64,000 nucleotides of DNA from an uncultured Gammaproteobacteria bacterium (GTDB lineage: Bacteria; Patescibacteriota; Microgenomatia; Levybacterales; UBA12049), in assembly GCA_965230895.1 (NCBI GenBank), contig OZ246394.1, forward strand, positions 441,316-505,315, given 5' to 3'. The stretch's first letter is position 1. Each line of letters starts with the position of its first letter. The notes below the pieces were generated by a model. It was not told where the DNA came from. It did no database searches and saw only the letters and a list, made by a program, of their open reading frames with translations. The position numbers and the translations under genes are program-made. Of this stretch, positions 4,528-44,698 are shown one piece after another.

Positions 4528-5064
4528 ATGAAACTGCTCTCTACTCTCTTTGTCATCATCGGACTCATTCTCGTTTCTTTCGGAGGATATCAACTATATC
4601 TGCGCGAAAATCCGCATAAGCTTTCATTTGATAATTATGCATATGCTGTCGATCATAAAGCTGAAGCAAAGCAACTTCCGGCACAAGTGGCGATACATGA
4701 TGTTAATATTGATGTTCCTGTCTATCCTGCAACGATTTCAAATGGACAATGGCCAGTTATAGAAAATGGAGCATCATATCTCTCGACATCTCCTCTCCCA
4801 GGCGAAAAAGGAAATAGTGTTATTTACGCACATAATTGGAAGAATCTTTTTGGTAATCTCGTGAATACCAAACCAGGAGAAGAAGTCGTTATAACTTACA
4901 AAGATGGGAGCAAAAAGACTTTTGTTATCGAATACACAAGCACTGTGTCTCCAAATGAATCAACAATCCTCGCTCCATCAAAAGATAAGAGAATTACGTT
5001 GTATACCTGCACCGGATTCTTAGATTCAAAAAGATTTGTTGTTGTAGCGTTGTTGAAGAACTAA
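4528..5064 (+). CDS. srt: Sortase (transpeptidase)
   Basis: N-terminal TM; catalytic TLxTC-type motif 'ITLYTCTG'; conserved His region 'VIYAHNW'; strong RBS AAGGAGG; lies immediately after its substrate gene. Confidence 0.85.
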   Translation: MKLLSTLFVIIGLILVSFGGYQLYLRENPHKLSFDNYAYAVDHKAEAKQLPAQVAIHDVNIDVPVYPATISNGQWPVIENGASYLSTSPLPGEKGNSVIYAHNWKNLFGNLVNTKPGEEVVITYKDGSKKTFVIEYTSTVSPNESTILAPSKDKRITLYTCTGFLDSKRFVVVALLKN

Positions 5065-5450
5065 TCCTCTTCCCTATTTACCTGTGTTACTTTTCCACCA
5101 TCTTTTTCAATGACATTGCCATGTGCTAAATCAACGATGAGATGTATTCCTCCTTTAGCATGAGCATCTTGCACTTCTCCTCTGACACGCACATTTATAT
5201 CCAATGGCTCTGTACCCGGTCGAACATCAGCTTCAACCAATGTAGCATTTCCACGGATAATCAAAGCAGTTTCACCAAATAGTGGTTTCTTTACTTTCGG
5301 AGGCTTAACATCACTAGCAACTCCTATTTCGACAAGGACATCTCCTGTACTATAAAAGTGTCCATCTAATCCACCTTGAGGTTTATTTAGTTTTCGAACT
5401 GGCAATGCAGCGAATTCACTCAGTCGTTGTATAATTCTGCGTTCAGGCAT
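5061..5450 (-). CDS. Hypothetical protein (weak beta-helix/bactofilin-like periodicity)
   Basis: 129 aa, Gly/Val-rich repeats (GDVLVEIGVASDV...ALIIRGNATLVEADV...GGIHLIVDLAHGNV); family not identified. Confidence 0.25.
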   Translation of the reverse strand: MPERRIIQRLSEFAALPVRKLNKPQGGLDGHFYSTGDVLVEIGVASDVKPPKVKKPLFGETALIIRGNATLVEADVRPGTEPLDINVRVRGEVQDAHAKGGIHLIVDLAHGNVIEKDGGKVTQVNREED

Positions 5451-5725
5451 AAGCTACGATTATACCATGCTCAGCTATAAATGTCTCACCCATAAAAAAG
5501 CCTCCTCAAGATGAGAAGGCTTTCCCCGTAACGTGATTCGCAGTAGTATATGGAATATACTTTTTGCAGAGATTACTGCTGATTTCGATCGTTCTTTTTA
5601 GCATAAGTAGCATATATTATTGAAGTAACATCTCAGAAAGAACCTTTCTATAAATGTGTAAGAATGATACAAAATTCAAGACAGAGCTAGTATTTTATTA
5701 ATAGATATGTATATACTATTAATAT

Positions 5726-6466
5726 ATGTCGAGCTCTTCTACAGAAAAAGATATTCAGAACCAACTTCGCGAGGGCGCAAAATTAGTTGAACAATCCTTC
5801 CGTTTCGAAAAAACTGAAGATGGATCCGTAACCAATGTAAAGCCTGCTTCAAGCACTGAAGCTATCAAGCAAGAAAAAAGCCCCTATACGAGCCAAACTG
5901 CTGCCGCCAAAGGTGCTCTCAAAGCAGTGACTGATTACATCAGTTTTGATAATAAGAAGCAAAGTGAGAAAGATGATACCATCGTCGACGTCAAAGTCCG
6001 CAATCCTTTTCATAAGATCATGAATCTCTTGCAGGATATTAAGAGCAAGCAGTCGACTACTGTCAGTATGCGCTTTACTATCCCACTGATTGCGCTTCCG
6101 ATCGTCCTTCTTGCTGCTTTTCAGCTAGGACGTGCACAAACTGTTTGTGCATCGAGGTTTACGTCTCAGATTGGAGTATTGAGATCTTTAACTGTCATGT
6201 CGCCTATTGAAGGAACTGTTGATGTCTATTCACATCTTTTATCTTTCTTTCCCGATATTCCCAGGTTACAAAAAGCAGAAGAACTACATTTAGCGAGAAG
6301 GACGATTCTTGTAGGTCTAGATGGAAAGATTCTCGATGTGCTCCATGATGAGAAATTGAAGATGAAGGGATTTGATGGAGAAGGTGTGATTCTTTCAGGA
6401 AATCTTTCTCCATGTGCAGGGACGATTAGCCTCGATGCAGAAGAAAATATTTCTTTGACTAATTAA
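5726..6466 (+). CDS. Hypothetical single-pass membrane protein
   Basis: 246 aa; one central TM (IPLIALPIVLLAAFQLG); no recognisable domain. Confidence 0.3.
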   Translation: MSSSSTEKDIQNQLREGAKLVEQSFRFEKTEDGSVTNVKPASSTEAIKQEKSPYTSQTAAAKGALKAVTDYISFDNKKQSEKDDTIVDVKVRNPFHKIMNLLQDIKSKQSTTVSMRFTIPLIALPIVLLAAFQLGRAQTVCASRFTSQIGVLRSLTVMSPIEGTVDVYSHLLSFFPDIPRLQKAEELHLARRTILVGLDGKILDVLHDEKLKMKGFDGEGVILSGNLSPCAGTISLDAEENISLTN

Positions 6467-6525: not shown

Positions 6526-8055
6526 ATGAAATTTTCAAAGCGTATAGTTTTTGTAGTGATTGCAATTTTTACTGTAGGACTCTTCAGCATAGCTATAGTA
6601 AGTTACACACAAAAAGAAATTGAAGTTAAAAAAGAAACCGCAAAAAGAGAAGCTTTATATAATCAAATTTTAGAAGGTTCTACCACCAAACCAACAACTG
6701 TATCTGTTGATTTTTCTTTATCCACTGCAAAAGGATCTCCATTAGTTTTTGGAGGATCACACCATCCAAATATAAACCATGCAGATGCTTGGAATAAGAT
6801 ACAAAACGTAGGGGTAACAATGATTAGAACAGATTTAGCAATGAATTACATGATTCGAAATACAACGTTACAAGATTACAAAAGTAACAAAAATGATATT
6901 CAAAATATCAAAAACTGGAATAATATAGATCTAAAAAAGATTAACAATGTGTTTGCAGAGGCACATTCAAGAGATATGAAAACTATTGGAATCATGGACT
7001 ATGCTCCTCCATGGTTAACACATGATGGCTCTGACTTTGGAGTTCCAACAGATTGGGAAGTATTTGAAGATATAGTTAAGAAAACCTATAAATACCATAG
7101 AAATGAACTTGATTATGTTGAGTTATGGAATGAAGCAAATCATGGACATTTTCTTCGCCCGGCTGGAAGTGGGATGTCAAGAGCTGAAGCTTATGAAAAA
7201 ATATATTATCATGCAGCAAAGGCTATTCGTGAAGTAGATGCAGAAGCAAATGATGGGAAAATTATACCTTTAGGAGGTCCTGTTGATCCATCTCCCAATG
7301 ATACAGCATTACTTGAACCGATTCTTAAAAATGAAGTAACACGAAGACAAGTTAATTTCATTAGTTATCACAATTATTATACTGCTGAACCTTCTTGGGA
7401 CAAGTATAAAACCTTATTAAAGCAATATAATATGGAAAACTATCCAATTTTTATAACAGAATGGAATATAGATGGCAAAAATGAAGTTGATGATCCTAAA
7501 AAAACTTCAGTTGATGCAATAATCTACACTGGTAATAAACTTGTAGATTTCTTAAAAATGGGGCTTACTGGAGCTAACTATTACTCCTTACAATCAATTA
7601 AAGAGGGGTCTGTCTATTTGGGATTTTACAAATGGGTTAACAATAAAGCGGAGCTCTTACCACAAGGAAAAACCTGGATGATAATGAGTAGACAAATGGG
7701 CTTAGGAAAAGGTGAAAGTACAATTTACCCAGTTCTAACTGAAGACAAAAACTTAAATAGTATTGGTTTTATAAATTCCACAAATGAACGAGGTGTCGTT
7801 TTGGTAAACTCCTCAAATGAAGCTCGTATGACATCGTTCAAATTAGAAAACACTCGAGTTGCACACACTGCCAAGATTAAAGTATACTACGCTTCTGGTA
7901 TTTATGATCCAGCTAAACCCATTTATGATGGAGTTATCAAAGCAACAAATGGTACAATCGATTTAGTTTTAGTTATACCAAAAGAGTCAGTTGTTGGAAT
8001 AAAACTTACTGGAGACAAAGAATGGTTTGATTTCCTCAATTTAACTTCTAATTAG
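6526..8055 (+). CDS. Secreted glycoside hydrolase, clan GH-A (GH5/GH39-like)
   Basis: N-terminal TM/signal; 'YVELWNEANHG' matches the clan GH-A catalytic acid/base NEP motif; 509 aa. Confidence 0.55.
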   Translation: MKFSKRIVFVVIAIFTVGLFSIAIVSYTQKEIEVKKETAKREALYNQILEGSTTKPTTVSVDFSLSTAKGSPLVFGGSHHPNINHADAWNKIQNVGVTMIRTDLAMNYMIRNTTLQDYKSNKNDIQNIKNWNNIDLKKINNVFAEAHSRDMKTIGIMDYAPPWLTHDGSDFGVPTDWEVFEDIVKKTYKYHRNELDYVELWNEANHGHFLRPAGSGMSRAEAYEKIYYHAAKAIREVDAEANDGKIIPLGGPVDPSPNDTALLEPILKNEVTRRQVNFISYHNYYTAEPSWDKYKTLLKQYNMENYPIFITEWNIDGKNEVDDPKKTSVDAIIYTGNKLVDFLKMGLTGANYYSLQSIKEGSVYLGFYKWVNNKAELLPQGKTWMIMSRQMGLGKGESTIYPVLTEDKNLNSIGFINSTNERGVVLVNSSNEARMTSFKLENTRVAHTAKIKVYYASGIYDPAKPIYDGVIKATNGTIDLVLVIPKESVVGIKLTGDKEWFDFLNLTSN

Positions 8056-8072
8056 TCTCATTAACTTTAGTT

Positions 8073-9326
8073 ATGAATTTAAAAAACTTACTACAGCTAT
8101 TTTTGAACGATTCTCTTTTTAAAAACTCTATTTACATCATGTTGAGTACTGCGATATTAGCGTTTCTTGGGTTCTTTTTTTGGATCGTAAATGCAAGACT
8201 ATATACTCCGGAGCAAGTTGGACTTGCAACTACATTACTTTCTGTTGTTGGATTAATTTCAAATGTTTGCTTATTAGGATTTAATAATGGCTTAATACGA
8301 TATCTGCCAACATCTGAACACAAGAATGACATGATTAATACAACACTTGTGCTAGTAGGATTTGCTTCACTAATATTAGGAATTCTTTATACAGTTTTTA
8401 TTGATGTTTTTTCTCCAAAGCTATCATTTATTAGAAATGATTTAGGTCTTTACTTTATTTTTCTTATATTTGTTGTCCTTTCTTCGTTTAGTGCTCTATC
8501 AGAAAATATATTCATTGCATTTCGAAATTCAAAGTATATTCTTATTAGGAACACATTGTTAAGTATAATAAAATTAATTTTTCCTTTATTTTTAGTGGCT
8601 TTAGGAGCTTATGGAATATTTTTATCAGTTGGAATCGCTACCGCAGTTTCATTCGTTGTGAGTATAGTTTATTTAGTTAAAAAGTTTGATTACAAAATTA
8701 AATTTATTGTTAATAAAATACTTGTTAGGAGGATGTTTAAATTCTCCTTAGCAAATTATATAGCAGGCTTAATTGGAGGATTACCTCAAACAATTCTTCC
8801 GATTTTAATTACAAATCATTTGGGACCATCCTATACTGCTTTTTATTATATGCCTATGATGATTGCTTCTCTACTTTTTATAATCCCGCAAGGAATAACA
8901 AAATCTCTTTTCGCAGAAGGTTCGACTAACGAAAAAGAGTTAAGTAAAATGTATAGAAAATCTTTAAAACTAAACGTCGCAATTTATCTTCCTGCAATGA
9001 TAATTTCTTTACTATTAGGACAATATGTATTGCTTGCATTCGGACCTGAATACGCAAAAGAAGGTACTACATTTCTTCAATTGTTAGCAGTTTCCGGAAT
9101 TTTTGTCTCCATCAACTCTATCATTGGCACTATACTAAATATACGCCACAAGTTAAAAGAGATTATTTTTATTAATGTATTTACAGTAGTTATAATACTC
9201 GGGTTGAGTTATGTTCTAACCTCAATGTATCTACTTGGAATTGGTATAGCTTGGATCATCGGCCAAATTGTCATGAGTGTTATATACTTTATTGTATATA
9301 TGCGTCTTAAGTCTAAATCAAAATGA
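8073..9326 (+). CDS. Polysaccharide biosynthesis protein / Wzx-like flippase (MOP superfamily)
   Basis: 417 aa, ~12 TM helices, typical Wzx hydropathy and length. Confidence 0.65.
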   Translation: MNLKNLLQLFLNDSLFKNSIYIMLSTAILAFLGFFFWIVNARLYTPEQVGLATTLLSVVGLISNVCLLGFNNGLIRYLPTSEHKNDMINTTLVLVGFASLILGILYTVFIDVFSPKLSFIRNDLGLYFIFLIFVVLSSFSALSENIFIAFRNSKYILIRNTLLSIIKLIFPLFLVALGAYGIFLSVGIATAVSFVVSIVYLVKKFDYKIKFIVNKILVRRMFKFSLANYIAGLIGGLPQTILPILITNHLGPSYTAFYYMPMMIASLLFIIPQGITKSLFAEGSTNEKELSKMYRKSLKLNVAIYLPAMIISLLLGQYVLLAFGPEYAKEGTTFLQLLAVSGIFVSINSIIGTILNIRHKLKEIIFINVFTVVIILGLSYVLTSMYLLGIGIAWIIGQIVMSVIYFIVYMRLKSKSK

Positions 9327-10438
9327 AAGTTTGTTTAATAAATGGTCACTATTATAAAAGTAACGATGGAATTGGTAGGTATGGTGAGAATTTAATTACG
9401 GATATTGCAAAAATTAACAATTCAATAAAGTTAGACATAGTAACGCATTTACCTACAGACTTATCTTCGAACAAATCAGTAAGAGTTAAATCTTCATTTC
9501 TCCATAAATTTTTACACCCATTTATAATGGAACTGAACTATTTTGTACGCTTTAAAAACAACACTTTAAGATTGCGTAAAGAATTACAAATACATAAAGG
9601 TAATGTTTACCATGCAGTATCGCCAAGTGAAGCAGTATCGGCGGTGTTGGAAAAGAAGCATCCATTAATTACGACATATCATGATATTATTCCCTTACTA
9701 GGGAAAAATCGTTTTATAATGGAAAAGTTTTATTTTCTTTTTTACAATAGTTACGCTAAAAAGAGTGACCTTATAATTTCTGACTCAATAAGTACAAAGA
9801 ATGATTTAGTTTCACATTTAGGAATTGATGAAGAAAAAGTAAAAGTTGTTTATCCAGGAATAGACTTAGAAAAGTTTAAACCATCTAAAAAAATCTCAAA
9901 TAATAAGCAAATAACACTTCTGTATTTAGGAGGGCTAGTTAAAAGAAAAGGGATTTATGAGACTATTTATGCCTTTCATAAGGTAGTACATGAAAGAAAT
10001 GGTCTACAATTATTAATTGCAGGAGTCGGGCCAGAAGAAAATTCTATTAAGAAAATTATAGAAAAACTGAACCTCTTAGATAAAGTAAAGTTGTTAGGAT
10101 TTATAAATGAAGAAAGAATAGCCGATACTTATCAAAAAGCAGATATTTTTATTTATCTATCGTTCTATGAGGGTTTTGGGTATACTCCTCTTGAAGCTAT
10201 GGCAAGTGGAATTCCCGTGATAGCCTCCAACAAGTCTTCTATTCCAGAAGTCGTAGGAGATGCTGGAATATTAGTAAACCCTTCAAATATTAAAGAAGTT
10301 TCAGAAAAAATAAAATTTCTAATAGATAATCCCACTCAGAGAAAGATATTAGCAAAAAAAGGATTGCTGCAATCGAAGAAGTTTAGTAATAGGACATTTA
10401 CAAAGAATATTCTTAGGATTTATAATGAACTAAATTAA
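9323..10438 (+). CDS. Glycosyltransferase family 4
   Basis: C-terminal GT4 motif [20 protein letters not shown]; start overlaps upstream stop (ATGA). Confidence 0.8.
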
Positions 10439-34302: not shown

Positions 34303-34375
34303 GCTCCCGTAGCTCAATGGATAGAGCACATCGGTTCTAACGATTAGGTTGGGGGTTCGAGTCCCTCCGGGAGTA
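34303..34375 (+). tRNA. tRNA-Arg (anticodon UCU)
   Basis: D-arm GCTCAATGGATAGAGC; anticodon loop GTTCTAA (U33, A37); T-arm GGGGGTTCGAGTCCCTC; one mismatch in the anticodon stem (C27/T43). Confidence 0.7.
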
Positions 34376-35875
34376 CTTATCGATATTTTTACTTTCAATT
34401 TGCTCCTTTAGGTTGTAAATAAAACCTAAATGAGGTGTTTGATAACTTCCATTTACAAAGATAAGTTTTTGCGGGAATATCGAACTCTGTATAGCATGTT
34501 TGCCTTCAATACTTGCTTTAGACCATACTTCATCCAAATGGGTAAGGTAGTAATGCATCCAATGCAAAAGTGTATCAATGTCTATCTGATCCATTTGCTT
34601 CTCATTGCTCAAACCTTTTTTTACAGAAAGATCCAAAGATAATTCATCCTTCATTTGCAAGTATTCTTCATCTGTATAAATACCTTTCAAATGCTTCATT
34701 TTCAGTGTATGTAAGATCTCTTCTGTTTGTTTGATATCCGCATTTACTTTATCGGAAGATTTGGAAAGCTCGGATAATTGTAATTCGTACTTTTCTTTAA
34801 GCATTTCCGTAAATATCTGCATTGGTTTATCTTTTACACAAATGTCTTTCAACAATTGAATAAATGCGTCGTCAGCTTTTTGTACAGGAACGCTGAAAGC
34901 TTTATGTTTCCTGCTACCACACACATAATAATTATATTTTTTCCCACTTTTTGATCTGCTTGGTGCACCTGTAAGACGTGACATACAAATTGCACAAAGC
35001 AATATACCTCTCAATGGGAAATCATCTCGGATATCACGCCGTACTGTATCTTTAACTTGCTTTCTTCCAGTTATTTGTTCACGCACACGGTAAAACAATT
35101 CTTCATCAATCATCGCTAGATGTTTTCCTTTTGCTTCACCATGCACTTTAGAAGTGATAATGCCCATGTAGTATTTGTTGGAAAAGATTTTTGAAACACT
35201 TTGTTTTATGAAAGGTTTATCATGTATTTGTAATTTATCGAGTTCTTTGCATGCCATACCAAGTGTAAGTTTTTCCTTATCAATTCGCTGCCATAAGTTT
35301 TTCAATTTAAAAAAAACTTTTTCATCGGGAATACCACAGCTTTTACCATTTACAATTCCTTTTTTATATCCAAGAGGGGGATAACTGTTTGTGTAGCCGT
35401 CCGTAAATCTTCGTTTCATTCCATCTTTGACACGAGCACTTTTAATATCGTTTTCGTATTGGCTTGCTGCACCAAGGATATTTTGCATGAATATTGCTTC
35501 AGCTGTCTCACCATTAGTTTCCGTTGCACTGATTAAAGAAACTCCGAATTTTGATAAATCACGCCGGATCAATAAGAAGTCCAACTGGTTACGACAAAGT
35601 CTATCCCATTTATAAATGGGAACAGCTGAAATATTATTATTTTTATCCGTACAGTATTTTAATAATTTTTGCAGTTCTGGACGATCCGTTGTTTTAGCAC
35701 TCTCTCCTTTCTCAATGAAATCATGCTTTATAACATATCCTTCTTTGTCAGCTTTTTTATGAATAATATCTTTTTGGCTATCAAGAGAGAAGTTGTCAGT
35801 TTGCAGCGATGTTGATACTCTTTCGTACCCAACAGCATACTTTATAATCATATCTTTATTGCTAGTTTTTATCAT
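34337..35875 (-). CDS. Large serine recombinase (resolvase/invertase N-domain plus recombinase and zinc-ribbon domains)
   Basis: YERVSTSLQ catalytic Ser region; Cys-rich zinc ribbon (CAICMSRL...YYVCGS); 3' end overlaps the tRNA-Arg 3' half. Confidence 0.8.
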   Translation of the reverse strand: MIKTSNKDMIIKYAVGYERVSTSLQTDNFSLDSQKDIIHKKADKEGYVIKHDFIEKGESAKTTDRPELQKLLKYCTDKNNNISAVPIYKWDRLCRNQLDFLLIRRDLSKFGVSLISATETNGETAEAIFMQNILGAASQYENDIKSARVKDGMKRRFTDGYTNSYPPLGYKKGIVNGKSCGIPDEKVFFKLKNLWQRIDKEKLTLGMACKELDKLQIHDKPFIKQSVSKIFSNKYYMGIITSKVHGEAKGKHLAMIDEELFYRVREQITGRKQVKDTVRRDIRDDFPLRGILLCAICMSRLTGAPSRSKSGKKYNYYVCGSRKHKAFSVPVQKADDAFIQLLKDICVKDKPMQIFTEMLKEKYELQLSELSKSSDKVNADIKQTEEILHTLKMKHLKGIYTDEEYLQMKDELSLDLSVKKGLSNEKQMDQIDIDTLLHWMHYYLTHLDEVWSKASIEGKHAIQSSIFPQKLIFVNGSYQTPHLGFIYNLKEQIESKNIDKYSRRDSNPQPNR

Positions 35876-36044
35876 TATCTATTCCGTTCGTCAATGCATT
35901 TTCTTTTCTCGCAACTTTCAGAATTTCATCACATATATTCCCAAATAATGTAAGTTGTTTAGCAAGCACTTCATCAGTTATTCCATTGGCATCTTCTCCT
36001 AATATCTCTCGGGCACGCTTTATTGTCATTTTTTGCCTTTCCAA
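35862..36044 (-). CDS. Small hypothetical protein (element-encoded)
   Basis: 60 aa, charged; overlaps the recombinase start. Confidence 0.3.
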   Translation of the reverse strand: MERQKMTIKRAREILGEDANGITDEVLAKQLTLFGNICDEILKVARKENALTNGIDNDKN

Positions 36045-36244
36045 CTTGCATCTTGTGTAACCAGTTTGTTAAAGTATGCCGCTTTATTTATGATGTGGTT
36101 TGCGTCTATTACTAATGCAACTAGCTTTTCGCACTTGTACAGACCAAGGTCACTGACAGCTTTGTAATAAAAAGCTATGCCTTTCAAATCATTAAATCTT
36201 TTTGCGATATTTTCGGCATGGTAAAGTGTTTCGGGATTATTCAC
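36026..36244 (-). CDS. Small hypothetical protein (element-encoded)
   Basis: 72 aa; overlapping gene chain typical of a compact mobile-element operon. Confidence 0.3.
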   Translation of the reverse strand: MNNPETLYHAENIAKRFNDLKGIAFYYKAVSDLGLYKCEKLVALVIDANHIINKAAYFNKLVTQDASWKGKK

Positions 36245-36830
36245 GACATTCGTTTTCCTCTCTTTCCTGTCTTTTTAAAGTTTCACTTTGTTCACGTAAT
36301 AGTTTTCGTCGCTCTTCTTCAGCGCTTAGTGTATTTTGTATTCCATAACCGTTTAGTAAAATTTTCGCCCGTTCATCCTGAAATTTTTCCATCGATAATC
36401 GAGTCTTATCATTGTTATCCTTATTATCATTATTGTTAGTCGTTATCTGTTCGTTATCCGATCGTTGCGTGGTCGATAGTTTGGTCGTTTCATCTTGAGC
36501 ATTAATGTTGAAAATGCTTGTATCTACAATCTTTGCGATAGTTCCCTTGTTCGTTGTTCTGATCGTTATCAGACCGTTTTTTTCAAGAAAAATCTTATCT
36601 GTTCGATAAATCATTTCAGTTGCACCATATGCTTCGTAATCTCCTATTAGTGCTTCACCAATATCTAATCCATCAAAAAGATCTTCAGAATGCCATCTTG
36701 CTCTAGTAGCAATTAATGTTAGTAAGCAGAATGCAGATTTTCTCTCTTTCAAAATCGACTCAAGCCTTTTTCCACGTTGTAACATTACGAAATTTACGTT
36801 TTTCTTCTCGTTATTATTTTCGTTCTCCAT
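36237..36830 (-). CDS. Putative replication-organiser/DnaD-like protein with low-complexity Asn/Asp linker
   Basis: N-terminal winged-helix-like region (FCLLTLIATRARWHSEDLFDGLDIGEAL); N/D-rich linker; charged C-terminus. Confidence 0.3.
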   Translation of the reverse strand: MENENNNEKKNVNFVMLQRGKRLESILKERKSAFCLLTLIATRARWHSEDLFDGLDIGEALIGDYEAYGATEMIYRTDKIFLEKNGLITIRTTNKGTIAKIVDTSIFNINAQDETTKLSTTQRSDNEQITTNNNDNKDNNDKTRLSMEKFQDERAKILLNGYGIQNTLSAEEERRKLLREQSETLKRQEREENECRE

Positions 36831-36999
36831 AGTTCTGTCTTTCTATCTCAACAGGTACAAATATGTATCCTTTACCCTCGCAGCCATGACAAATTCTACT
36901 TCCATGTTTCAGTGTTCCAAATCCGTGGCACACTGGACACATCTGAGCATAATATTTGGGATTTATTTCTTTAACTTTTATTTCGGGTGATTTTTCCAT
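36814..36999 (-). CDS. Zinc-ribbon small protein
   Basis: CPVCHGFGTLKHGSRICHGCEGKGY (CxxC...CxxC). Confidence 0.4.
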   Translation of the reverse strand: MEKSPEIKVKEINPKYYAQMCPVCHGFGTLKHGSRICHGCEGKGYIFVPVEIERQNYGERK

Positions 37000-37012
37000 C
37001 TATCTTTCTCAC

Positions 37013-37037
37013 AAAAAAAGCAACCATGAAAGGTTGC
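37013..37037 (-). terminator. Rho-independent terminator-like hairpin (minus strand)
   Basis: gcaacc-atgaaa-ggttgc stem-loop, preceded on the plus strand by a 7-A run (= U-run on minus). Confidence 0.45.
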
Positions 37038-37577
37038 TTCTGTATGAAAAAAGCTCAAGCAGAAATACTTTCCTTTCAGGCAAAAATTGCCAAAAACGGT
37101 TAAGTAATTCCTACTTGAGCCTTCCCTGAACTCGAATGGATTACATGTATGACTGTTACTATCCTACTTAAAGATAGCTCTTGATCAATGGCATGTAACG
37201 ACCCATTGTCGTTGTTCGCGGTCTCCTCGAAGTTGAACAGTACCGAAAATCTTTTGTTAACAATAAATTATCATGTATTTTGAAACTTTGCAACTTTAAT
37301 CTTATTCCTTTTTACGCCCCTGTTATGTACACTGTATATAGCTTGCAAAATATGCAATTTTATCCTATAATATAGGTATCATTTTAAGATTTGCCTAACC
37401 CTATTGGTTCGCCGATAGGCATGGCAAGAAAACCGTTGAAAGTAGTAAGCTCGTCGTCGAGTTCTTTCAACGGTCATATGGGGAAACTCATATGGGGAGA
37501 AATCCCGCTGGCGGCGAGCTTTTTGTATGGCTTCATTTTGTCCTCAAAAAGATCGTCCCATTTAGGAGGTGATACTT

Positions 37578-37772
37578 ATGTTAACAATGTTAATTATAAT
37601 GTTTATTGTTGCCGTTGGAATTGATCAAATGATGCACAATTACAGAGTACAAAAGCATAATGAGCAAGCCGAAATATACTGGCAAGATTATTTAGCAAAT
37701 AAAGAGCAAAGAGATGCACTAGATAGAAGTATGGGTGTTCCTACTTTGGAGGAAAGAGTACGGAAAAGTTAA
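37578..37772 (+). CDS. Small membrane protein (64 aa)
   Basis: Strong RBS AGGAGGTGA 8 nt upstream of ATG; N-terminal TM (LTMLIIMFIVAVGI) then charged tail. Confidence 0.4.
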   Translation: MLTMLIIMFIVAVGIDQMMHNYRVQKHNEQAEIYWQDYLANKEQRDALDRSMGVPTLEERVRKS

Positions 37773-38228
37773 TTACTTCCAATCTTTTTCTGTTTCGTAT
37801 CCAATTTGTAGCTTTGGTATATTTGACCATTTCTTATTTTTGGAAGCATTTGAATACCATGCAGGGTAATCCTTTATTTTGTAATAGCCTTGAGCTGTGC
37901 CGTTTGGTGAAGGTATGCTGTACCATGCTTGTGAATCCTGCTCATAATCCATACGAGCAAGTGTCTTCAGTATTTCGGATTTTAAGATCGGTTTAAGTCG
38001 CTCATAGAACTTATAGACCTGTCTTGTTGGGATACCAGTAAGATTTGCTATTTCCCATGCCGTGAAACCAAAATCACGACGTAGACGGTATATCATAAAT
38101 GCCAAATGCAGATGTTGATCAGACTTGAAGAGTTTATGACCAACAATAGTCATACGGTTTGTAAGAACTCTACTGTATACTTTCTTCCTTTTGTTTTCTT
38201 CTTTCAGTTTTGCCAACTCTTTTTTCAT
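37773..38228 (-). CDS. HTH DNA-binding protein (element-associated regulator)
   Basis: FTAWEIANLTGIPTRQVYKFYERL helix-turn-helix; basic N-terminus. Confidence 0.4.
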   Translation of the reverse strand: MKKELAKLKEENKRKKVYSRVLTNRMTIVGHKLFKSDQHLHLAFMIYRLRRDFGFTAWEIANLTGIPTRQVYKFYERLKPILKSEILKTLARMDYEQDSQAWYSIPSPNGTAQGYYKIKDYPAWYSNASKNKKWSNIPKLQIGYETEKDWK

Positions 38229-38493: not shown

Positions 38494-40713
38494 TTATACT
38501 TTTACTAAATCCTTTTCAGCACGTTTGAGTGATACAGCATTAATAGCAACAATTATTGAGGATAAACTCATTAGAAGGGCAGCCCATTCTGGACGTAGCG
38601 CAATTTTGAATGCCGGATATAAGACCCCAGCAGCTACAGGAATTGCTAAGAGATTGTAAATTGAAGCCCAGAAAAGATTTTGTTTCATTTTGCGTACTGT
38701 TGCTTTAGAAAGTGTAATTGCTCGTAAAATATCAGTTGGATCAGATTTCATAAGCACTACTTTAGCTGTCTCAATTGCGACATCTGTACCAGCTCCGATA
38801 GCAATACCAATATTTGCTTGAGCCAATGCAGGAGCATCATTGACACCATCACCCACCATAGCAACAAATTTCCCTTCATTTTGAAGTTCTTTAACGTACT
38901 TTGCTTTATCTTGAGGCATGACATCTGCAAATACGCGTTGTATGCCGAGCTTTTTAGCGACTATTTCAGCCGTTTTCTCGTTATCACCAGTAATCATTGC
39001 AGTTTCAATACCTAAAGCATTCATCCTCTCTATAGCTTTTCTTGAGGATGCTTTGATTGGATCGGAAGCACCTACAACTGCTTTAATCTTTTTATCAACT
39101 GCAAGTACCATAATCGTTTGTCCATCTCTTAATAATGCATCAATATCATCTTTAAGCGGTTGTATATCAATGTTATTCTTCTCCATCAACTTAACAGTTC
39201 CGACAAGAACTGCCTTCCCATTAACGAGTGCCTTTACACCAAGTCCAGAAAGGTTTTCGAACTTTTCAACTTTTGCCTGTATTTTTACATTGCGTTTTTT
39301 TGCTGCTTCTAAAATAGCATTACTTAAAGGATGTGAAGATTTCTCCTCAGCTGCAGCCATTAAATGCAACATCTCCATTTCATCAACTCCTTTAAGCGTA
39401 ACAATTTTGGTAACTTGGGGCTTTCCATCAGTAAGTGTTCCTGTTTTATCAAGGACAACAGCTGCAATTTTTGATACTTGCTCAAGGGTTGGTGCGTCTT
39501 TAATAAGAATATTATGTTTAGCACCCAATCCTGTTCCAACTGCAACAGCCGTTGGTGTAGCTAATCCTAATGCATCGGGGCAAGCGATAACAACTGCTGA
39601 TATTGCAAAGGTAAGAGCAAACAGCAAAGGTTGTCCAAGAATAAAATACCAAACTACAAATGTTAGTAAACCACTTCCTACAGCAAGAACAACTAAATAG
39701 CCTGCAAAACGATCAGCCAAACGTTGTCCTGGAGCTTTTGAATTTTGTGCAGTCTCTACCATTTGAACGATCTGTGCCAATGCAGTGTCGTTACCAACCT
39801 TTGTAGCCTTAAATCGTACAGATCCTGTTTGATTAATAGATCCTCCAATAACTATATCTCCCTTTTTTCTCGTTACAGGAAGGGACTCTCCTGTAACTAA
39901 AGACTCGTCAATTGAAGTTTCGCCTTCAATAATCTCTCCATCTACTGGTACTTTATCTCCGGGTTTCAAAACGAGAATGTCTCCGAGTTGTACTTCAGAA
40001 GTAGGAAGCATTTTCTCTTTACCATTTTTAAGAACTCTAGCTTGCGGAGGTACGAGATTAAAGAGCGCCTGCAAAGCATCTGTTGTACCTCTGCGTGATT
40101 TCATTTCCATCCAGTGCCCAAAAAGTACAAAGGTAATTAACATCGCAGCCGCTTCATAAAATGTCTCATGACTTCCCATTAGAGTCAGCAGTACACTAAA
40201 AAGGTATGCAGCAGTAATACCCACGGCAATCAAAACTGACATACCCAACTTTTTAGTTTTAAATTCAAAGTATGATGAGTAAAGGAATAACCATCCTCCG
40301 TAAAAGAATACAGGTGTGGTTAACAAAAATAATATCCAAGGAGTTGGAATTGGTTCAGGAAGTGTCCAACCGAGTAACATTTGCCCCATAGAGTAAGCAA
40401 GTATAGGAAGAGTTAACAGTAGAGAAAAGAAAAATTTATTGCGAATATCTTCCTCCATAAGTTTTGCCATTTCACGACCTGTTAGTCCTGTATGATCCAT
40501 ACCCATTGTCATAGTTAAACCCATTTTTTGCTTTTCCCAAAATGACATCTCGGAAACTGGCTTCATATGGTGCATGCCATACTGTCCATCTTCTTTCTTC
40601 TCTTCAACCAATGCCATGCCGCATAGTGGACAAACACCTGGTTTGTTTTGTTGGACTTCTGGATGCATTGGACATCGGTAGCTCTTTATAAAAACTGTCG
40701 AATTATGTTTCAT
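38494..40713 (-). CDS. copA: Copper-translocating P1B-type ATPase
   Basis: N-terminal CPMHPE...CPLCGM metal-binding motif; TM CPD motif (ACPDALGLATP); DKTGTLT phosphorylation site; GDGVNDAPAL hinge. Confidence 0.9.
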   Translation of the reverse strand: MKHNSTVFIKSYRCPMHPEVQQNKPGVCPLCGMALVEEKKEDGQYGMHHMKPVSEMSFWEKQKMGLTMTMGMDHTGLTGREMAKLMEEDIRNKFFFSLLLTLPILAYSMGQMLLGWTLPEPIPTPWILFLLTTPVFFYGGWLFLYSSYFEFKTKKLGMSVLIAVGITAAYLFSVLLTLMGSHETFYEAAAMLITFVLFGHWMEMKSRRGTTDALQALFNLVPPQARVLKNGKEKMLPTSEVQLGDILVLKPGDKVPVDGEIIEGETSIDESLVTGESLPVTRKKGDIVIGGSINQTGSVRFKATKVGNDTALAQIVQMVETAQNSKAPGQRLADRFAGYLVVLAVGSGLLTFVVWYFILGQPLLFALTFAISAVVIACPDALGLATPTAVAVGTGLGAKHNILIKDAPTLEQVSKIAAVVLDKTGTLTDGKPQVTKIVTLKGVDEMEMLHLMAAAEEKSSHPLSNAILEAAKKRNVKIQAKVEKFENLSGLGVKALVNGKAVLVGTVKLMEKNNIDIQPLKDDIDALLRDGQTIMVLAVDKKIKAVVGASDPIKASSRKAIERMNALGIETAMITGDNEKTAEIVAKKLGIQRVFADVMPQDKAKYVKELQNEGKFVAMVGDGVNDAPALAQANIGIAIGAGTDVAIETAKVVLMKSDPTDILRAITLSKATVRKMKQNLFWASIYNLLAIPVAAGVLYPAFKIALRPEWAALLMSLSSIIVAINAVSLKRAEKDLVKV

Positions 40714-40787
40714 ACTATTTTTGCTCTGTATATCAGTGATCTGCTTAGAAGAAGTGCATATGATGCACCTCTCCCAAAAAGATTACT

Positions 40788-41813
40788 TTAGTGGCCACTA
40801 TGACCATCATTACCTAATGGTGCTTCGATATCCACGAGTAATTGTTCTATTTTGCTTATTTCTTGATTTTGAGTTGAAATTATATTGTTTGCTAATGTCT
40901 TTATTTCAGCTCGTTCTGTTTTCTTTAAAACCTCTTGTGCCATTGCAATAGCACCATTATGATGTTCAATCATTCCTTGAAGATATGTTTCTTCTGCTTC
41001 ATGAGATCCTTTACCTTTAATGCTCTGCATCATAGGTTGATATTGACCATTATCTTCGTATTCTGCATCGAACCAGGCTTTATGCCAGCCTTTCATATCT
41101 GCAACCTCTTTCTTTTGTGCATCAATAATACCTTGTGCTAAGGCTTCTATTTCTGGATTGGTAGTTACCGTTAGAATTTCTTCTGAAGTGGTAATAGCTT
41201 CTTCATGATGCGGTATCATGCCTTCAATAAAGGATTTATCATCCGTTACTGTAGCAGCATGAGAACTATGATCAGCAACACTTGCCGGCATCCTTGCGCT
41301 TTCATTTCCATGACCGTGCCCGGATGAAGTATCTATTGTCTTTGCGTAAGCTTGTAAGCCTACAAAAAGCAATCCTACAATTATTACAGAAAATATTGTA
41401 AGCTTTAGTAACTGTTTGAGCTGTAAATGAATATTACTTTTCAATAAATACCCAACCAAAGCAACAATGCCACCTAAAGGAATTAGGTATGTTGCATACT
41501 CTGGAAACTCTTCAAAGTGTTGCACACCTCCTGAAATCATTCCAATTCCTAAAGAAAGAATAAGTGAAAAGAAAATTACTTTGGCAAGTCCTTCTTCCTT
41601 AAAATCTTTCTTGTTAAAAATTGCTTCGTTAATTGTAGAAGCTGCAACAAAGATTATCGCTCCGATTATACCGAGAACTAAAAATCTTGGTGGATCAATT
41701 TGAAAATGAACTATTGCTCCTGAAAGAAATCCAGTACCAATAAAGAGTGAAATATATACTAAAAACTGAATTAAAATACTACGTAAGCGTTTTGTATTCT
41801 CCATTGAAATCAC
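40788..41813 (-). CDS. DUF305-domain membrane protein (copper-resistance associated)
   Basis: Two DUF305 HH motifs (MIPHHEEAITTSEEIL; MIEHHNGAIAMAQEVL) after 4-5 TM helices. Confidence 0.65.
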   Translation of the reverse strand: MISMENTKRLRSILIQFLVYISLFIGTGFLSGAIVHFQIDPPRFLVLGIIGAIIFVAASTINEAIFNKKDFKEEGLAKVIFFSLILSLGIGMISGGVQHFEEFPEYATYLIPLGGIVALVGYLLKSNIHLQLKQLLKLTIFSVIIVGLLFVGLQAYAKTIDTSSGHGHGNESARMPASVADHSSHAATVTDDKSFIEGMIPHHEEAITTSEEILTVTTNPEIEALAQGIIDAQKKEVADMKGWHKAWFDAEYEDNGQYQPMMQSIKGKGSHEAEETYLQGMIEHHNGAIAMAQEVLKKTERAEIKTLANNIISTQNQEISKIEQLLVDIEAPLGNDGHSGH

Positions 41814-41824
41814 CTCCTTTCAAT

Positions 41825-42097
41825 TTAAGACTTTTTCTTAAATACCTGCATTACTTCATTGATCGTTTCTTCTTTATTGCCTTTGCTTATCGCATCGGCA
41901 ACACAAGTCTTTAAATGGTTCTCTAGGATAACGTTTCCAGTTTCTTTCAGACCGCTCTGTACTGCTTGGAGTTGATGCATTGTATCAATACAATATGCAT
42001 CTGTTTCCACCATAGAAATAACCTTATCGAGGTGTCCTCTTGCGATCCTTAATCTGTGAGCAATGCGCTCTTGTTGATCTTTTGGTTGGTATGCCAT
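41825..42097 (-). CDS. csoR: CsoR/RcnR-family metal-sensing transcriptional repressor
   Basis: RLRIARGHLDKVISMVE...YCIDTMHQLQAV (DUF156 with Cys/His metal ligands). Confidence 0.85.
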   Translation of the reverse strand: MAYQPKDQQERIAHRLRIARGHLDKVISMVETDAYCIDTMHQLQAVQSGLKETGNVILENHLKTCVADAISKGNKEETINEVMQVFKKKS

Positions 42098-42207: not shown

Positions 42208-42840
42208 CTAACCCCTCCGTAATAAGCCTGAAAATTTTCCACGTACTTCAAAAGTATCGGTAGGTACTGTAAAAGGTTTGAGAGACGGGTTTCTTGGAAT
42301 AAGAGTAACATTACCATCTTTCATACCTCCATATCTTTTTAATGTTACTTCACCGTCTGAGACTGCTACAATAATATCACCTACCTGAACCTGAGATTGC
42401 AATTGTTGAATTAAAATTATATCGCCATCCCAAATTTCATCACTTATCATTGAGTCACCACTTACTTTGAGTGCATAACAGGTGGATGGACTTGACACCA
42501 TACTTCTAGGAACTGTTATCATTTGTCGTTCATCTTCAAACGGTTCAGATGGTGAACCTGCATGTATTATTCCCAATAAAGGTATGTTTACTGTGTTTTC
42601 AGTATAGCTTGGTGGTTTAAGTCCTCTTGATTGGAAACTTGCTTTTTTCAAATAACCTTTCTTTTTAATTAATTCGATGTGTTCATGTATAGTAGGTGTG
42701 GAATTCCCAAAGTGCTTAGCAATCTCCTGTAGAGACGGAGAAAATCCATGCTGCTGATGAAATGCAAAAACAAAATCTATTATTGCTTTTTGCTTGGGGG
42801 TCAGTGGACGTATGTGTTGGTTATTGACAAGCTTATCCAT
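42208..42840 (-). CDS. lexA: LexA-like S24-peptidase transcriptional repressor
   Basis: N-terminal wHTH (LTPKQKAIIDFV...GFSPSLQEIAKHFG); S24 catalytic Ser (VSGDSM) and Lys (TLKRYG); 210 aa. Confidence 0.8.
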   Translation of the reverse strand: MDKLVNNQHIRPLTPKQKAIIDFVFAFHQQHGFSPSLQEIAKHFGNSTPTIHEHIELIKKKGYLKKASFQSRGLKPPSYTENTVNIPLLGIIHAGSPSEPFEDERQMITVPRSMVSSPSTCYALKVSGDSMISDEIWDGDIILIQQLQSQVQVGDIIVAVSDGEVTLKRYGGMKDGNVTLIPRNPSLKPFTVPTDTFEVRGKFSGLLRRG

Positions 42841-42964
42841 AAGGTATATTATAGCCCTAATCTACCCCTAATACAAGGGGGACAAAAAAACCGCTCGACA
42901 GCAGTTTTTTGTGAGTTTTAGCCTCATTCATAGGCTATCACATGCTGCTTCAGAGGTCAATAGC

Positions 42965-43927
42965 ATGAATTATACTGACCAAGCAATTAGTGATCTTCTT
43001 AAAGCTATGGCTCGCACGAGCCTCAGCAACTTCGTTAGCGAAATAACTGTAAAGAAATCCGAGATAGAACAAGCTTCAAAGAGTTATGGCTACATTTCAG
43101 AAGTCTTGAAGACAAAAGCAGAGGAAGAAAAAATCCCCGCATTAATTCCATATCCTACATTTTTGATAGGTTCTTACCCCCGAGGAACAAAGATCTCACC
43201 ATTGAATGATATCGACATTTTTCTTGTAGCACACGCTTTTGGGACTTCATATGTTAAATGGAGCGACGGGATACATTGGTTTCACGGTGATGTCGAGAAA
43301 TTAAAGAAGTTTTCTCAAGATGGATACACAGTAAGCTCTGTTTCGGTACTGAATTCCATAAAGAAAGCACTTGAAGAGACATATTCTTCAGACATCAGTA
43401 GAAATCAGCAAGCAGTGACTGTATACCTCGAATCATATGGAATAACAATTGATATTGTACCTGCTGTCAGAATTAAAGATGAAGATTTTTTCATCATTCC
43501 TAGCGGCAATGGAAACCCAACTTGGAAATTTTCTCACCCACTACAAGACGCTTTACTACTGGATGAGATACACCTGGCACATAACAATACAATAAAACAG
43601 ACCTTGAAGATAGCAAAATACTGGAACAGAGAGCACAACCATAATAAGCTTAAGTCTTATCATATGGAAGCAGCTGCTTACCACATCTTTGGAAGCTTTT
43701 CAAATCCTACCGCAACAATTCTGGAGTCCTGTCTTACGTACTTCAGTCAGCTTACTTCATACCTGTACTACTGTTCTGATCCTACTGGGATGTCTGAGCC
43801 GATCAGTGGGTATTTGTCAGAGGATGTATTGGATCGCTTGAACCATGAAGTGAGGATCATGGAAGTGCAAAATGCAGCGGCGAAAGGATCTGAAGAATTT
43901 ATTAAATTTTTGAGGAAAGAGAAATAA
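42965..43927 (+). CDS. SMODS/CD-NTase-like nucleotidyltransferase (Pol-beta superfamily; candidate CBASS cyclase)
   Basis: LIGSYPRGTKISPLNDIDIFLV (GS...DxD); third acidic strand GITIDIVPA; C-terminal K..KYW helix (KIAKYWNREH); ATG at 42965 after AGAGGT. Confidence 0.6.
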   Translation: MNYTDQAISDLLKAMARTSLSNFVSEITVKKSEIEQASKSYGYISEVLKTKAEEEKIPALIPYPTFLIGSYPRGTKISPLNDIDIFLVAHAFGTSYVKWSDGIHWFHGDVEKLKKFSQDGYTVSSVSVLNSIKKALEETYSSDISRNQQAVTVYLESYGITIDIVPAVRIKDEDFFIIPSGNGNPTWKFSHPLQDALLLDEIHLAHNNTIKQTLKIAKYWNREHNHNKLKSYHMEAAAYHIFGSFSNPTATILESCLTYFSQLTSYLYYCSDPTGMSEPISGYLSEDVLDRLNHEVRIMEVQNAAAKGSEEFIKFLRKEK

Positions 43928-43930
43928 AGC

Positions 43931-44410
43931 ATGACAGATCATAAACTACTAAAACAAATGGCTGAAGAAGCTATCTACTCCGCAAAAGGACACTTTAAAT
44001 CAAGTGATTGGATTGGGTACTGTTTGTTTCTACTGATAGTAGTTCCATTTATCACTTCTAGCGTCATACTGATCTTCGACGTTGATGATTTTTGGACAAG
44101 AGTATTGGCATTTGTTGGAGCAGTGTTCTCTATGCTGGCGATAGTTTATTCGTTTACTTCCAATCAGCCTCAAGCTAAAAAAAGGATAGAACAACATATG
44201 ACTTTGGGAAATCAGTATCTCGGTATTTATTCAGAGATAAGGGAATTGGTTATGACAAATAGTCAGACACCTACAAAAATACAAAGATTACGCAAAGATC
44301 TCCATGAACTTAATGTGAAGACAAGCAATTGCAAAATTACTTTTTTTGGAAGGTGGCATTCGAAGATAGTTATACATAACGAAGTTGATACAAAATGGTT
44401 ATATGAATAA
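43931..44410 (+). CDS. 2TM SLATT-like effector/membrane protein
   Basis: 159 aa; two adjacent TM helices (WIGYCLFLLIVVPFITSSVILIF; VLAFVGAVFSMLAIVYSF) plus helical C-terminal region; 3 bp after the NTase gene. Confidence 0.5.
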   Translation: MTDHKLLKQMAEEAIYSAKGHFKSSDWIGYCLFLLIVVPFITSSVILIFDVDDFWTRVLAFVGAVFSMLAIVYSFTSNQPQAKKRIEQHMTLGNQYLGIYSEIRELVMTNSQTPTKIQRLRKDLHELNVKTSNCKITFFGRWHSKIVIHNEVDTKWLYE

Positions 44411-44428
44411 CGGAAGGGGGTGATAATC

Positions 44429-44638
44429 ATGGCAGCTAAAAAACCAATTAATCAAGGTAAACCATGGACAGGCGTTCAGGAAACAAATCTAAAAAAACTT
44501 GCTAAAGGAAATACTCCTACAGCTCTTATTGGATATAAGCTTGGAAGAACAGAAAGTTCTATACAATCTAAAGCTCAGGAACTGAATATATCTCTAAAAC
44601 CGGTTAACAAATCACCGTACAATCGGTTAAAGAAATAA
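44429..44638 (+). CDS. Small GcrA-N-like HTH DNA-binding protein
   Basis: WTGVQETNLKKLAKGNTPTALIGYKLGRTESSIQSKAQEL matches the W-T..E..L.KL....s...IA..LGRT HTH pattern; RBS AAGGGGGTGA. Confidence 0.4.
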   Translation: MAAKKPINQGKPWTGVQETNLKKLAKGNTPTALIGYKLGRTESSIQSKAQELNISLKPVNKSPYNRLKK

Positions 44639-44698
44639 TTATGTTCGCCTTTAAATATAACTGCTGACGCTATAGTAAACTTTGCTAAAGTGCGATAT

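Follow-up and report, generated by a model that had tools for sequence, protein, structure and literature searches.

How toxic abortive infection systems are kept silent until they are needed is an active question, and it is posed in a particular form by a 64-kb stretch of genome from a bacterium of the Patescibacteria (candidate phyla radiation, CPR; contig OZ246394.1, positions 441,316 to 505,315; hereafter the window, whose coordinates are used throughout). Here a lexA gene stands back to back with the genes of a cyclic oligonucleotide-based antiphage signaling system (CBASS). Does LexA govern the immune operon across the short region that the two share, or do they simply adjoin? We favor the first answer: with a probability of about 0.58, the locus is a type I CBASS housed in a lexA-anchored, LexA-repressed, DNA damage-inducible slot for interchangeable defense cassettes. 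As a CBASS the system is an ordinary one that adds a divergent new member to type I. The interest lies in its link to LexA, which is conserved across loci, has statistical support, and comes with a concrete promoter and operator architecture that is open to testing.

A lexA gene divergent from a CBASS operon

The lexA gene (42208–42840, minus strand; 210 aa) is divergent from three plus-strand genes and separated from the first of them by an intergenic region of 124 nt (42841–42964). That first gene encodes the CBASS oligonucleotide cyclase, a cGAS/DncV-like nucleotidyltransferase (CD-NTase; 42965–43927, 320 aa). The gene for a SLATT-type effector with two transmembrane helices (2TM; 43931–44410, 159 aa) begins 3 nt after the cyclase stop codon, and a gene for a tri-helical helix-turn-helix (HTH) protein of phage origin (44429–44638, 69 aa) follows after a gap of 18 nt with its own ribosome-binding site (RBS), GGAAGGGGG. 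A first-pass annotation of the window had placed all four open reading frames (ORFs) where they were found; the cyclase length alone changes, from the 321 aa given there to 320, with the start at ATG 42965 called by gene callers on four identical metagenome contigs.

The earlier description of the divergent gene as a LexA-type S24 repressor holds well. It combines a LexA DNA-binding winged HTH (PF01726, 47.2 bits) with an S24 autoprotease domain (PF00717, 90.7 bits) and scores 148.5 bits over its full length against the NCBIfam LexA equivalog TIGR00498, for which the cut-off is 110.95. The Ala-Gly cleavage site (A94-G95) and the Ser/Lys dyad (S130 and K168) are invariant in an alignment of this protein with 30 relatives (31 sequences), and judged by these residues the gene product is a true, autocleavage-competent LexA. 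Its named relatives lie in Patescibacteria, Daviesbacteria, Roizmanbacteria, Paceibacterota, and Berkelbacteria, at 41–48% identity; a scan of reference genomes (GTDB species representatives) returned only LexA proteins of Bdellovibrionota, at 30–38%. LexA_DNA_bind and Peptidase_S24 are the only domains that Pfam, PADLOC, and NCBIfam recognize in this regulator, no second regulatory gene lies beside it, and no recA or translesion polymerase gene was recognized among the scanned ORFs of the window.

Interchangeable defense cassettes divergent from lexA

The loci chosen for comparison (designated by L numbers) are those of the closest LexA relatives on the longest metagenome contigs, and two further cases came from distant loci. 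With the window they make 10 loci in seven lineages, every one of which has a defense cassette divergent from lexA, at intergenic distances of 68–157 nt. The cassette is a CBASS in six of the 10, and these six carry five effector types. In the window (LexA 100%) it consists of the cyclase and the 2TM SLATT protein, together with the 69-aa HTH protein. L022 (LexA 55% identical) has a lamin-tail domain (LTD) protein, a transmembrane effector (PADLOC C3a59, 7.6e-22), a cyclase with AGS_C (7e-73), and a 537-aa protein; L025 (55%) has a 263-aa protein, a cyclase (9e-46), and an E2 protein (2e-14); and L195 (56%) has a SAVED-HNH Cap5-like effector (3.8e-144), a cyclase (1e-68), and an E2 protein (3.9e-59). 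Cap15-type effectors accompany the cyclase in L196 (48%; DUF2188 protein, cyclase 1.6e-90, effector 2.2e-61) and in L062 (39%; cyclase 6e-111, effector 1e-83). The remaining cassettes are of other kinds: an LTD protein with a 609-aa OLD/AriAB/PtuA-like ATPase (2.7e-54) in L023 and L029 (both 53%), an LTD protein with a ThsB-type TIR protein and a caspase in L027 (53%), and a DUF2188 protein (PADLOC PDC-S16) with a 397-aa protein and a HEC-06/Orf5/SspE-like protein of 621 aa in L032 (44%).

As a control for this association, the three genes upstream of lexA were scanned at 51 more distant loci, which the metagenome and viral scans had supplied (148 proteins). A cyclase occurs at one of the 51, which is the L062 locus already counted among the 10; CBASS is thus found at 5 of 8 loci of the subclade vs 1 of 51 distant ones (Fisher p = 6e-5). 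Cyclases of different lexA loci are only 22–25% identical to each other, which argues that they were acquired independently. Within the group of loci that share the LTD protein, cassette turnover is, by the same kind of comparison, rapid: LexA is 80–88% and the LTD protein ~78% identical, and the cargo differs. Between the two Cap15-type loci, L196 and L062, the similar identities of LexA (47%), cyclase (41%), and Cap15 (46%) indicate that the three have diverged together.

That the coupling to LexA is meaningful, as the first-pass annotation supposed, is therefore strongly backed by the 10 divergent cassettes and the six CBASS among them. It had also asked whether homologous loci ever pair these genes, and here the answer is divided: this LexA lineage always stands with a defense cassette, and no LexA accompanies this particular cyclase at other loci. 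The closest relative of the cyclase with gene context (L005) is partnered by an S_4TM effector, and no LexA is present there.

Some first genes of these cassettes recur with different partners. The LTD protein (156–157 aa; L022 7371–7844, L023 7374–7844, L027 5476–5949, and L029 2063–2536, all on the minus strand) is always encoded first in its cassette, where its gene abuts the variable defense genes or overlaps them by 4 nt; neither PADLOC nor PHROG models match the protein, which could be a conserved adaptor or sensor common to different effectors. The small DUF2188 protein (PDC-S16, phrog_3220) likewise comes first in two cassettes that otherwise differ, the Cap15-type CBASS of L196 (7625–7870, minus strand) and the cassette with the HEC-06-like protein in L032 (7705–7932, minus strand). 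Beside the CBASS of L196 lies a set of NAD-salvage genes (1147–5857; NAMPT/NAPRTase, PRPP-synthetase-like, NUDIX-NrtR regulator, and Band_7) that adjoins the abortive infection system. In L062, the lexA frame is open for 621 codons (7998–9863), which could reflect a fusion, a frameshift, or an assembly artifact.

A shared promoter region with a candidate LexA operator

In the half of the intergenic region next to lexA, one architecture is common to the window, the LTD group, and L195; L025 and L032 share the lexA promoter, a direct repeat, and an outward promoter, but not the hairpin described below. The lexA promoter (42848–42876, minus strand) consists of a −35 element TTGTAT (42871–42876), a 17-nt spacer, and a −10 element TATAAT (42848–42853), and the same plan (TTGnnT, a spacer of 16–18 nt, TATAAT) is found in all relatives. 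Its spacer is filled by the direct repeat TTAGG-N6-TTAGG (42856–42871, minus strand), which begins directly after the −35 element and ends at the −10; this is the only exact site in the window.

An equivalent repeat occupies the same place in every related lexA promoter, with spacing fixed at N6 (period 11), and within the 11–17 kb searched in each relative locus the motif occurs only at the lexA promoter. Its sequence varies, from TTAGC-N6-TTAGG in the LTD group and TTAGG-N6-TTAGG in L025 to TTCGT-N6-TTCGG in L195, TTCGT-N6-TTCGC in L196, and TTCGA-N6-TTCGA in L032. The variant at a locus corresponds to the sequence with which the LexA recognition helix begins, S-[IT]-P-[ST]-I-H going with TTAG and A-[VI]-S-T-V-H with TTCG. 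CPR-type lexA promoters among the background loci carry the same element, in its TTCGN form (L034, ATGTTCGGCAAATGTTCGGTATAAT; also L033, L038, L042, and L060). There is precedent for direct-repeat recognition by LexA: the motif GTTC-N7-GTTC has been reported in Alphaproteobacteria, and a Patescibacteria study is cited among independent origins of such recognition (ref. 52 in PMC7739468, as that citation presents it). Position, conservation, correspondence with helix type, and this precedent make the period-11 repeat the best candidate for the LexA operator. The canonical CPR-type motif TTCG-N7-TTCG has no noteworthy site in the window and so gives no hint of a second LexA specificity.

Facing the cassette is a predicted sigma70-type promoter, here called P_div (42824–42852, plus strand; TTGACA-17-TATTAT, 11 of 12 consensus matches). 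Its −35 element is formed by lexA codons 5–6 (GTC AAT, Val-Asn), and its −10 lies on the same base pairs as the lexA −10. Across loci the consensus is TTGAC[AT], with the −35 drawn from GTC AAY, then 17–18 nt and TATTAT, TATTCT, or TAAAAT, and it is conserved in five independent lineages. With a long lexA leader the Val-Asn codons sit at lexA nt 6–11, and with a short one (window and L032) at nt 12–17; since this shift keeps the 17–18 nt spacing, the constraint appears to act on DNA rather than on protein. A P_div-like promoter is present in 4 of 82 background lexA loci, L032 among the four (Fisher p = 8e-5). L032 has just 68 nt between lexA and its cassette, which leaves P_div as the sole promoter able to serve that cassette, and the repeat falls in the early transcribed region.

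The predicted transcript from P_div to the cyclase begins with a structured leader. Hairpin 1 (42865–42880, plus strand; CCCCU-N6-AGGGG) overlaps the lexA −35 on the opposite strand and is replaced at the same place in LTD-type loci by AGGCT-N7-AGCCT, in which the arms differ and complementarity is kept. It is followed by an A-run, hairpin, and T-run (42885–42910), terminator-like in both directions and also present in LTD-type loci and L195; this element bounds the conserved sequence, and beyond it the loci are unrelated. As a whole, the leader RNA is predicted to be more structured than shuffled controls (z = −3.1), and its minimum-free-energy fold sets the terminator-like hairpin in competition with a helix that involves the Shine-Dalgarno region. 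The LTD-type leader likewise has a strong predicted hairpin that sequesters the RBS (z = −3.2).

Two palindromes were considered as operators and set aside. A perfect dyad, TAGCCT-N7-AGGCTA, lies 28 nt upstream of the cyclase ATG (42919–42937), and the window holds two exact copies of TAGCCT/AGGCTA (the other at 3782–3799), vs ~0.6 expected even allowing one mismatch; it does not agree consistently with the relatives in spacing (N6 or N7) or in the orientation of its arms. The palindrome CTGTA-N7-TACAG of LTD-type loci is not enriched in the window and varies in spacing between loci.

The distant copy of the TAGCCT dyad, in the form TAGCCT-N6-AGGCTA, coincides with a second copy of the candidate LexA operator (TTAGCCTTAAATTAGG then CTATTTTAT, 3781–3799, plus strand), ~100 nt upstream of a gene for a secreted protein with a LAPTG sortase signal (3901–4515), which is followed by a sortase gene (4528–5064); the genes downstream of the site are this sortase substrate and sortase, with no repair or defense genes there. 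An inverted pair (CGACAGCAGTT / AACTGCTGACG, 10 of 11 nt; 42896–42906 and 44659–44669) brackets the cassette of cyclase, 2TM, and HTH genes exactly, with one arm in the leader hairpin and the other 21 nt beyond the final stop codon. In the relatives the boundary hairpin is not repeated at the far end of the cassette, so the pair in the window is probably due to chance.

An ordinary type I CBASS with a divergent cyclase

Profile searches bear out the first-pass identification of the cyclase as a CD-NTase of the SMODS family. The protein matches Pfam SMODS (PF18144) at 1.8e-17 (64.5 bits; cut-off 26.5) and 32 PADLOC CBASS cyclase models, the best being PDLC00802 at 1.9e-45. An exhaustive HMMER search through 1.8 billion representative proteins returned 630 relatives, 20 of them below 1e-30 and the best at 52% identity, which marks it as divergent yet not isolated. 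A profile built from 28 relatives reached the CD-NTases 6p8u, 6p82, and 6p8j in the Protein Data Bank (PDB) at 4.5e-36, and thereafter CdnC, CdnD, cyclic AMP-AMP-GMP synthases, and cGAS. The quoted motifs are all in the translation, KIAKYW included, and in a pairwise alignment with 6p82 GSYPRGT, DIDIF, and IDIVPA stand opposite GSYARYT, DIDIF, and VDAVPA. The G-S/DxD/D site, including the acidic triad on which the first-pass annotation had hung the catalytic reading, is therefore present; G69, S70, D82, D84, and D163 are invariant or nearly so among the 28 relatives. By these residues, the protein is a genuine CD-NTase with its catalytic site intact.

The proposed partner, a 2TM effector of SLATT type, also finds support. 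The 159-aa protein matches the PADLOC 2TM effector model PDLC00677 at 1.6e-12, and hydropathy places adjacent hydrophobic helices at ~28–50 and ~55–76. Its SLATT scores straddle the cut-offs: SLATT_6 27.2 bits (cut-off 27.1) and SLATT_4 21.3 (cut-off 27) in Pfam, SLATT_4 50 (cut-off 55) and SLATT_6 27.9 (cut-off 100) in NCBIfam.

It could be argued instead that the 320-aa protein is a nucleotidyltransferase of another kind (an antibiotic nucleotidyltransferase, or one of the CCA-adding or MNT type) and the 159-aa protein a housekeeping membrane protein. Such a case would draw on the NCBIfam scan, in which the cyclase falls short of the equivalog cut-off of 200 bits for both CBASS_cyclase_b (108 bits) and CBASS_cyclase_a (41 bits) and weakly matches an archaeal CCA enzyme and the DS2_2 antiphage nucleotidyltransferase. 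Scores below the equivalog cut-offs make the cyclase a divergent member outside those two groups. Against the non-cyclase reading stand the 32 PADLOC cyclase models, the PDB profile that leads to CdnC/CdnD-type enzymes and on to cGAS, the conserved catalytic residues, the fit of the partner to 2TM and SLATT models, and the S_4TM effector beside the nearest cyclase relative; on these sequence comparisons the idea is effectively refuted, and we give it almost no weight.

Ancillary genes of other CBASS types (Cap2/Cap3 with E1/E2/JAB, or HORMA/TRIP13) were absent from the neighbors scanned with Pfam, PADLOC, and NCBIfam (a glycosyltransferase, a 292-aa protein of unknown function, CsoR, DUF305, and CopA). 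A cyclase and 2TM effector in their absence constitute type I CBASS, an already described type, and the first-pass suggestion of a variant outside the described types gives way to a plain type I gene content. Like other type I systems with a 2TM effector, this one has a two-gene core in which the CD-NTase is followed after 3 nt by the small 2TM protein; it differs in the divergence of the cyclase, whose nearest solved relatives are of CdnC/CdnD type, in an effector that is marginal against SLATT cut-offs, and in its host, a CPR bacterium.

The 69-aa HTH protein and the neighborhood of the locus

The small HTH protein had been taken for part of the module, and this does not survive comparison. 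Although without a Pfam, NCBIfam, or PADLOC match, the protein is related to phrog_323 ("transcriptional regulator, D5-like"; 1.2e-7). Its family comprises 82 relatives at 56–81% identity, whereas the nearest cyclase relative that the same tool retrieves is 35% identical, and it occurs on 64 IMG/VR viral contigs; temperate Pseudomonas phages carry versions 59–64% identical. In phage AUS531phi, the homologous gene stands alone in opposite orientation within a block of tail genes; in L193 and L194, it is in an operon behind a LexA-like repressor and a DUF3892 gene, near terminase and ParB-methyltransferase genes; and in L191, its neighbors include genes for a zeta toxin and a TraG-like ATPase. 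The gene is in none of the other lexA-CBASS loci. It is probably co-transcribed with the CBASS but not specific to it, and on this distribution the protein is a phage-derived passenger or an extra regulator, not a CBASS component. For a small phage regulator the family is unusually conserved (~60% between a CPR bacterium and Pseudomonas phages).

The label "GcrA-N-like HTH" fares better, as a description of fold. An AF2 model from 50 homologues has three helices (pLDDT 80.7), and the top Foldseek neighbors are Myb/SANT and Tc3 HTH domains and GcrA (7ye1_G; root-mean-square deviation 1.3 Å over 46 columns, probability 0.89). None of these matches reaches E ≤ 0.001, which is usual for a domain of ~50 residues; at the level of the modeled fold, the label is reasonable.

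An integrated element had been placed next to the operon. A tRNA-Arg(TCT) gene (34303–34376) is overlapped at its 3′ end by the gene for a 512-aa large serine recombinase (34337–35875, minus strand), and this junction is 6.3 kb from lexA. Small ORFs and the genes for a 197-aa protein with a weak match to DnaD-like helicase loaders and for a 151-aa HTH-like protein follow, and the stretch as a whole (34303–38228) resembles a small integrative element. The recombinase at the tRNA gene agrees in part with the claim, and an att-like duplicate of tRNA-Arg that would mark the end of the element was not found. Contigs of the same strain from metagenomes break at this tRNA (L001). In the stretch between the serine recombinase and a copper ATPase, a 64-aa ORF and the gene for the 151-aa HTH-like protein flank a LOOT RNA (Rfam RF03000; 37392–37506, plus strand; 85.5 bits, gathering score 46.4). 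The LOOT motif is named for the OD1, OP11, and TM7 lineages, and its presence, taken with the named relatives of LexA, indicates a CPR host.

Directly downstream of lexA is a copper resistance set, csoR-DUF305-copA (38494–42097, minus strand), with its own sigma70-like promoter (42144–42117). Copper P-type ATPases at 40–45% identity are encoded within a few kilobases of lexA in four distant background loci (L060, L072, L104, and L105), so that the lexA-copA neighborhood recurs. Farther away, G+C content is markedly lower between 8000 and 19000 (28–32%, vs 35–43% elsewhere in the window); from ~10.4 kb this stretch holds a run of minus-strand ORFs of 257–746 aa each and is possibly a cluster for surface polysaccharide or glycosylation that was gained by horizontal transfer.

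Regulated slot, hotspot, or mobile-element cargo

If the locus is a LexA-controlled slot, its operation can be pictured as follows. A LexA dimer would bind TTAGG-N6-TTAGG in the spacer of the lexA promoter; since P_div shares its −10 with lexA and has the repeat just downstream of its start, bound LexA would be expected to shut both promoters alike. DNA damage or phage replication would give rise to RecA-ssDNA filaments, LexA would cleave itself at A94-G95, and both promoters would open. The P_div transcript would then pass through the structured leader, where the terminator-like hairpin and RBS sequestration may form a second brake. Once made, the cyclase would sense infection and synthesize a cyclic oligonucleotide (a trinucleotide is our guess, because of the affinity to CdnC and CdnD), and this would activate the 2TM protein, permeabilize the membrane, and kill the infected cell.

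Several observations weigh against this picture. The sample is small, 10 loci in seven lineages on metagenome contigs chosen for length, and the genome may hold a second lexA beyond the 64 kb of the window. Identification of the repeat as operator is inferred from position and conservation only, and the repeat lies downstream of the P_div start site, not over the core hexamers of that promoter; L196 and L062 have no P_div in this geometry. As a predictor of cassettes, P_div gave a mostly negative result: the background loci with a P_div-like promoter (L047, L065, and L071) are mostly without a clear defense cassette, L047 offering a weak NYN/HEC-09 match, L071 nothing, and L065 an upstream gene that is co-directional. 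The hairpin that separates P_div from the cyclase could just as well insulate the cassette by stopping read-through. Defense genes are also found downstream of lexA: type I restriction-modification (R-M) genes in L023, L027, and L029, and in L195 genes for GmrSD and for a helicase-PLD protein. Recombinase or conjugation genes are near lexA in 4 of 8 loci. The whole region is therefore a defense island, in which adjacency by itself could reflect a hotspot.

The main rival to LexA control takes up that last point: a housekeeping SOS lexA would merely border a defense island or integration hotspot, each cassette bringing its own promoter and the hairpin serving as insulation. It is favored by the defense genes that flank lexA on both sides (type I R-M, GmrSD, and a possible HEPN), by recombinase and conjugation genes within ~7 kb in half of the eight loci, by the hairpin with its flanking A and T runs between P_div and cargo, by the additional promoter-like and palindromic elements nearer the cargo in LTD-type loci, and by the mostly negative outcome at the three P_div-like background loci. 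Mere bordering sits poorly, however, with an orientation that is divergent 10 times of 10 at short intergenic distances, with a constraint on lexA codons that acts at the DNA level and conserves P_div, with the lack of space for any other promoter in L032, with the co-divergence of LexA and CBASS between L196 and L062, and with a cyclase at only 1 of 51 distant lexA loci. We consider a passive hotspot unlikely, though it deserves more weight than any other alternative. Less probable again is that this LexA is the immunity or maintenance repressor of an integrative element or prophage, like cI or SetR, with the CBASS carried along as moron-type cargo, much as rexAB adjoins lambda cI. The mobile genes nearby would suit such an origin: the serine recombinase abutting tRNA-Arg in the window, TraG, relaxase, and ArdC in L023, serine recombinases in L027 and L196 (the latter also with Prim-Pol and AAA_25), and the 69-aa phage gene that in L193 and L194 shares an operon with a LexA-like repressor near terminase; nor are the flanks of lexA conserved between lineages. 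The protein itself points the other way, passing the LexA equivalog cut-off and standing closer to Patescibacteria LexA on long contigs (43–48%) than to viral-contig LexA (≤38%) or the L193 prophage LexA (33%). The gene has the promoter and operator layout of chromosomal lexA genes in CPR bacteria, the nearby mobile genes vary from locus to locus, and phage structural genes are absent from the surroundings of lexA in the window.

Relation to known damage-responsive systems

Three classes of damage-responsive regulators of immune operons have been described since 2022. They are the repressor systems CapW, CapH/CapP, and CapK/CapS, whose genes stand upstream of immune operons that include CBASS. 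The papers searched on them do not mention LexA or S24 regulators in this role, and full-text literature searches returned no report of a LexA encoded beside CBASS. They have in common with the lexA slot a repressor gene directly upstream of diverse immune operons, interchangeable cargo, and proposed de-repression by ssDNA or DNA damage. The proteins differ, CapW being a WYL protein, CapH/CapP an HTH protein with an M78-type peptidase, and CapK/CapS a kinase with a repressor, whereas the present regulator is a LexA winged HTH with S24. The lexA slot, whose regulation we infer, may thus be functionally parallel to these systems and is not a member of them.

Comparison can also be made with the lethal genes under canonical SOS control, such as colicin operons and SOS toxins. 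There, as in the architecture proposed here, a LexA operator (in our case a candidate) stands at the promoter of self-harmful genes, and lexA is autoregulated through an operator in its own promoter (again a candidate). What differs is the target, an antiphage signaling system beside lexA that shares its promoter region, and the site, a CTGT-N8-ACAG palindrome in canonical SOS as against the period-11 direct repeat. In layout, the locus resembles the integron platform, with a conserved gene divergent from variable cargo, an outward promoter inside coding sequence, and a link to SOS. Unlike in the integron, no integrase is adjacent, attI/attC sites are lacking, the relatives show no bracket repeats, and each cassette is a whole operon; the resemblance is an analogy of layout only.

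Implications

On these grounds we put forward, as a tentative generalization that we hold at rather less than even odds, that this LexA lineage of Patescibacteria is a fourth, undescribed class of damage-responsive immune-operon regulator. It would act as a fixed docking platform, with a bidirectional LexA-operated promoter whose outward half lies in the first codons of lexA, into which whole operons (five kinds of CBASS, OLD-type ATPases, TIR-caspase, and GmrSD-like systems) are swapped, and through which SOS directly arms abortive infection. If this is true, RecA-stimulated autocleavage would couple antiphage immunity straight to the classical SOS response, in place of parallel ssDNA sensors, and the compact bidirectional promoter and operator would be open to direct testing.

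The tiny genomes of Patescibacteria are often thought poor in defense systems. Several CBASS types are documented in the group, and genes divergent from lexA in this CPR lineage may serve as an anchor for mining new defense systems, beginning with the unannotated partners that already occupy the slot: the LTD protein, DUF2188, the 263-aa protein, and the 537-aa protein.

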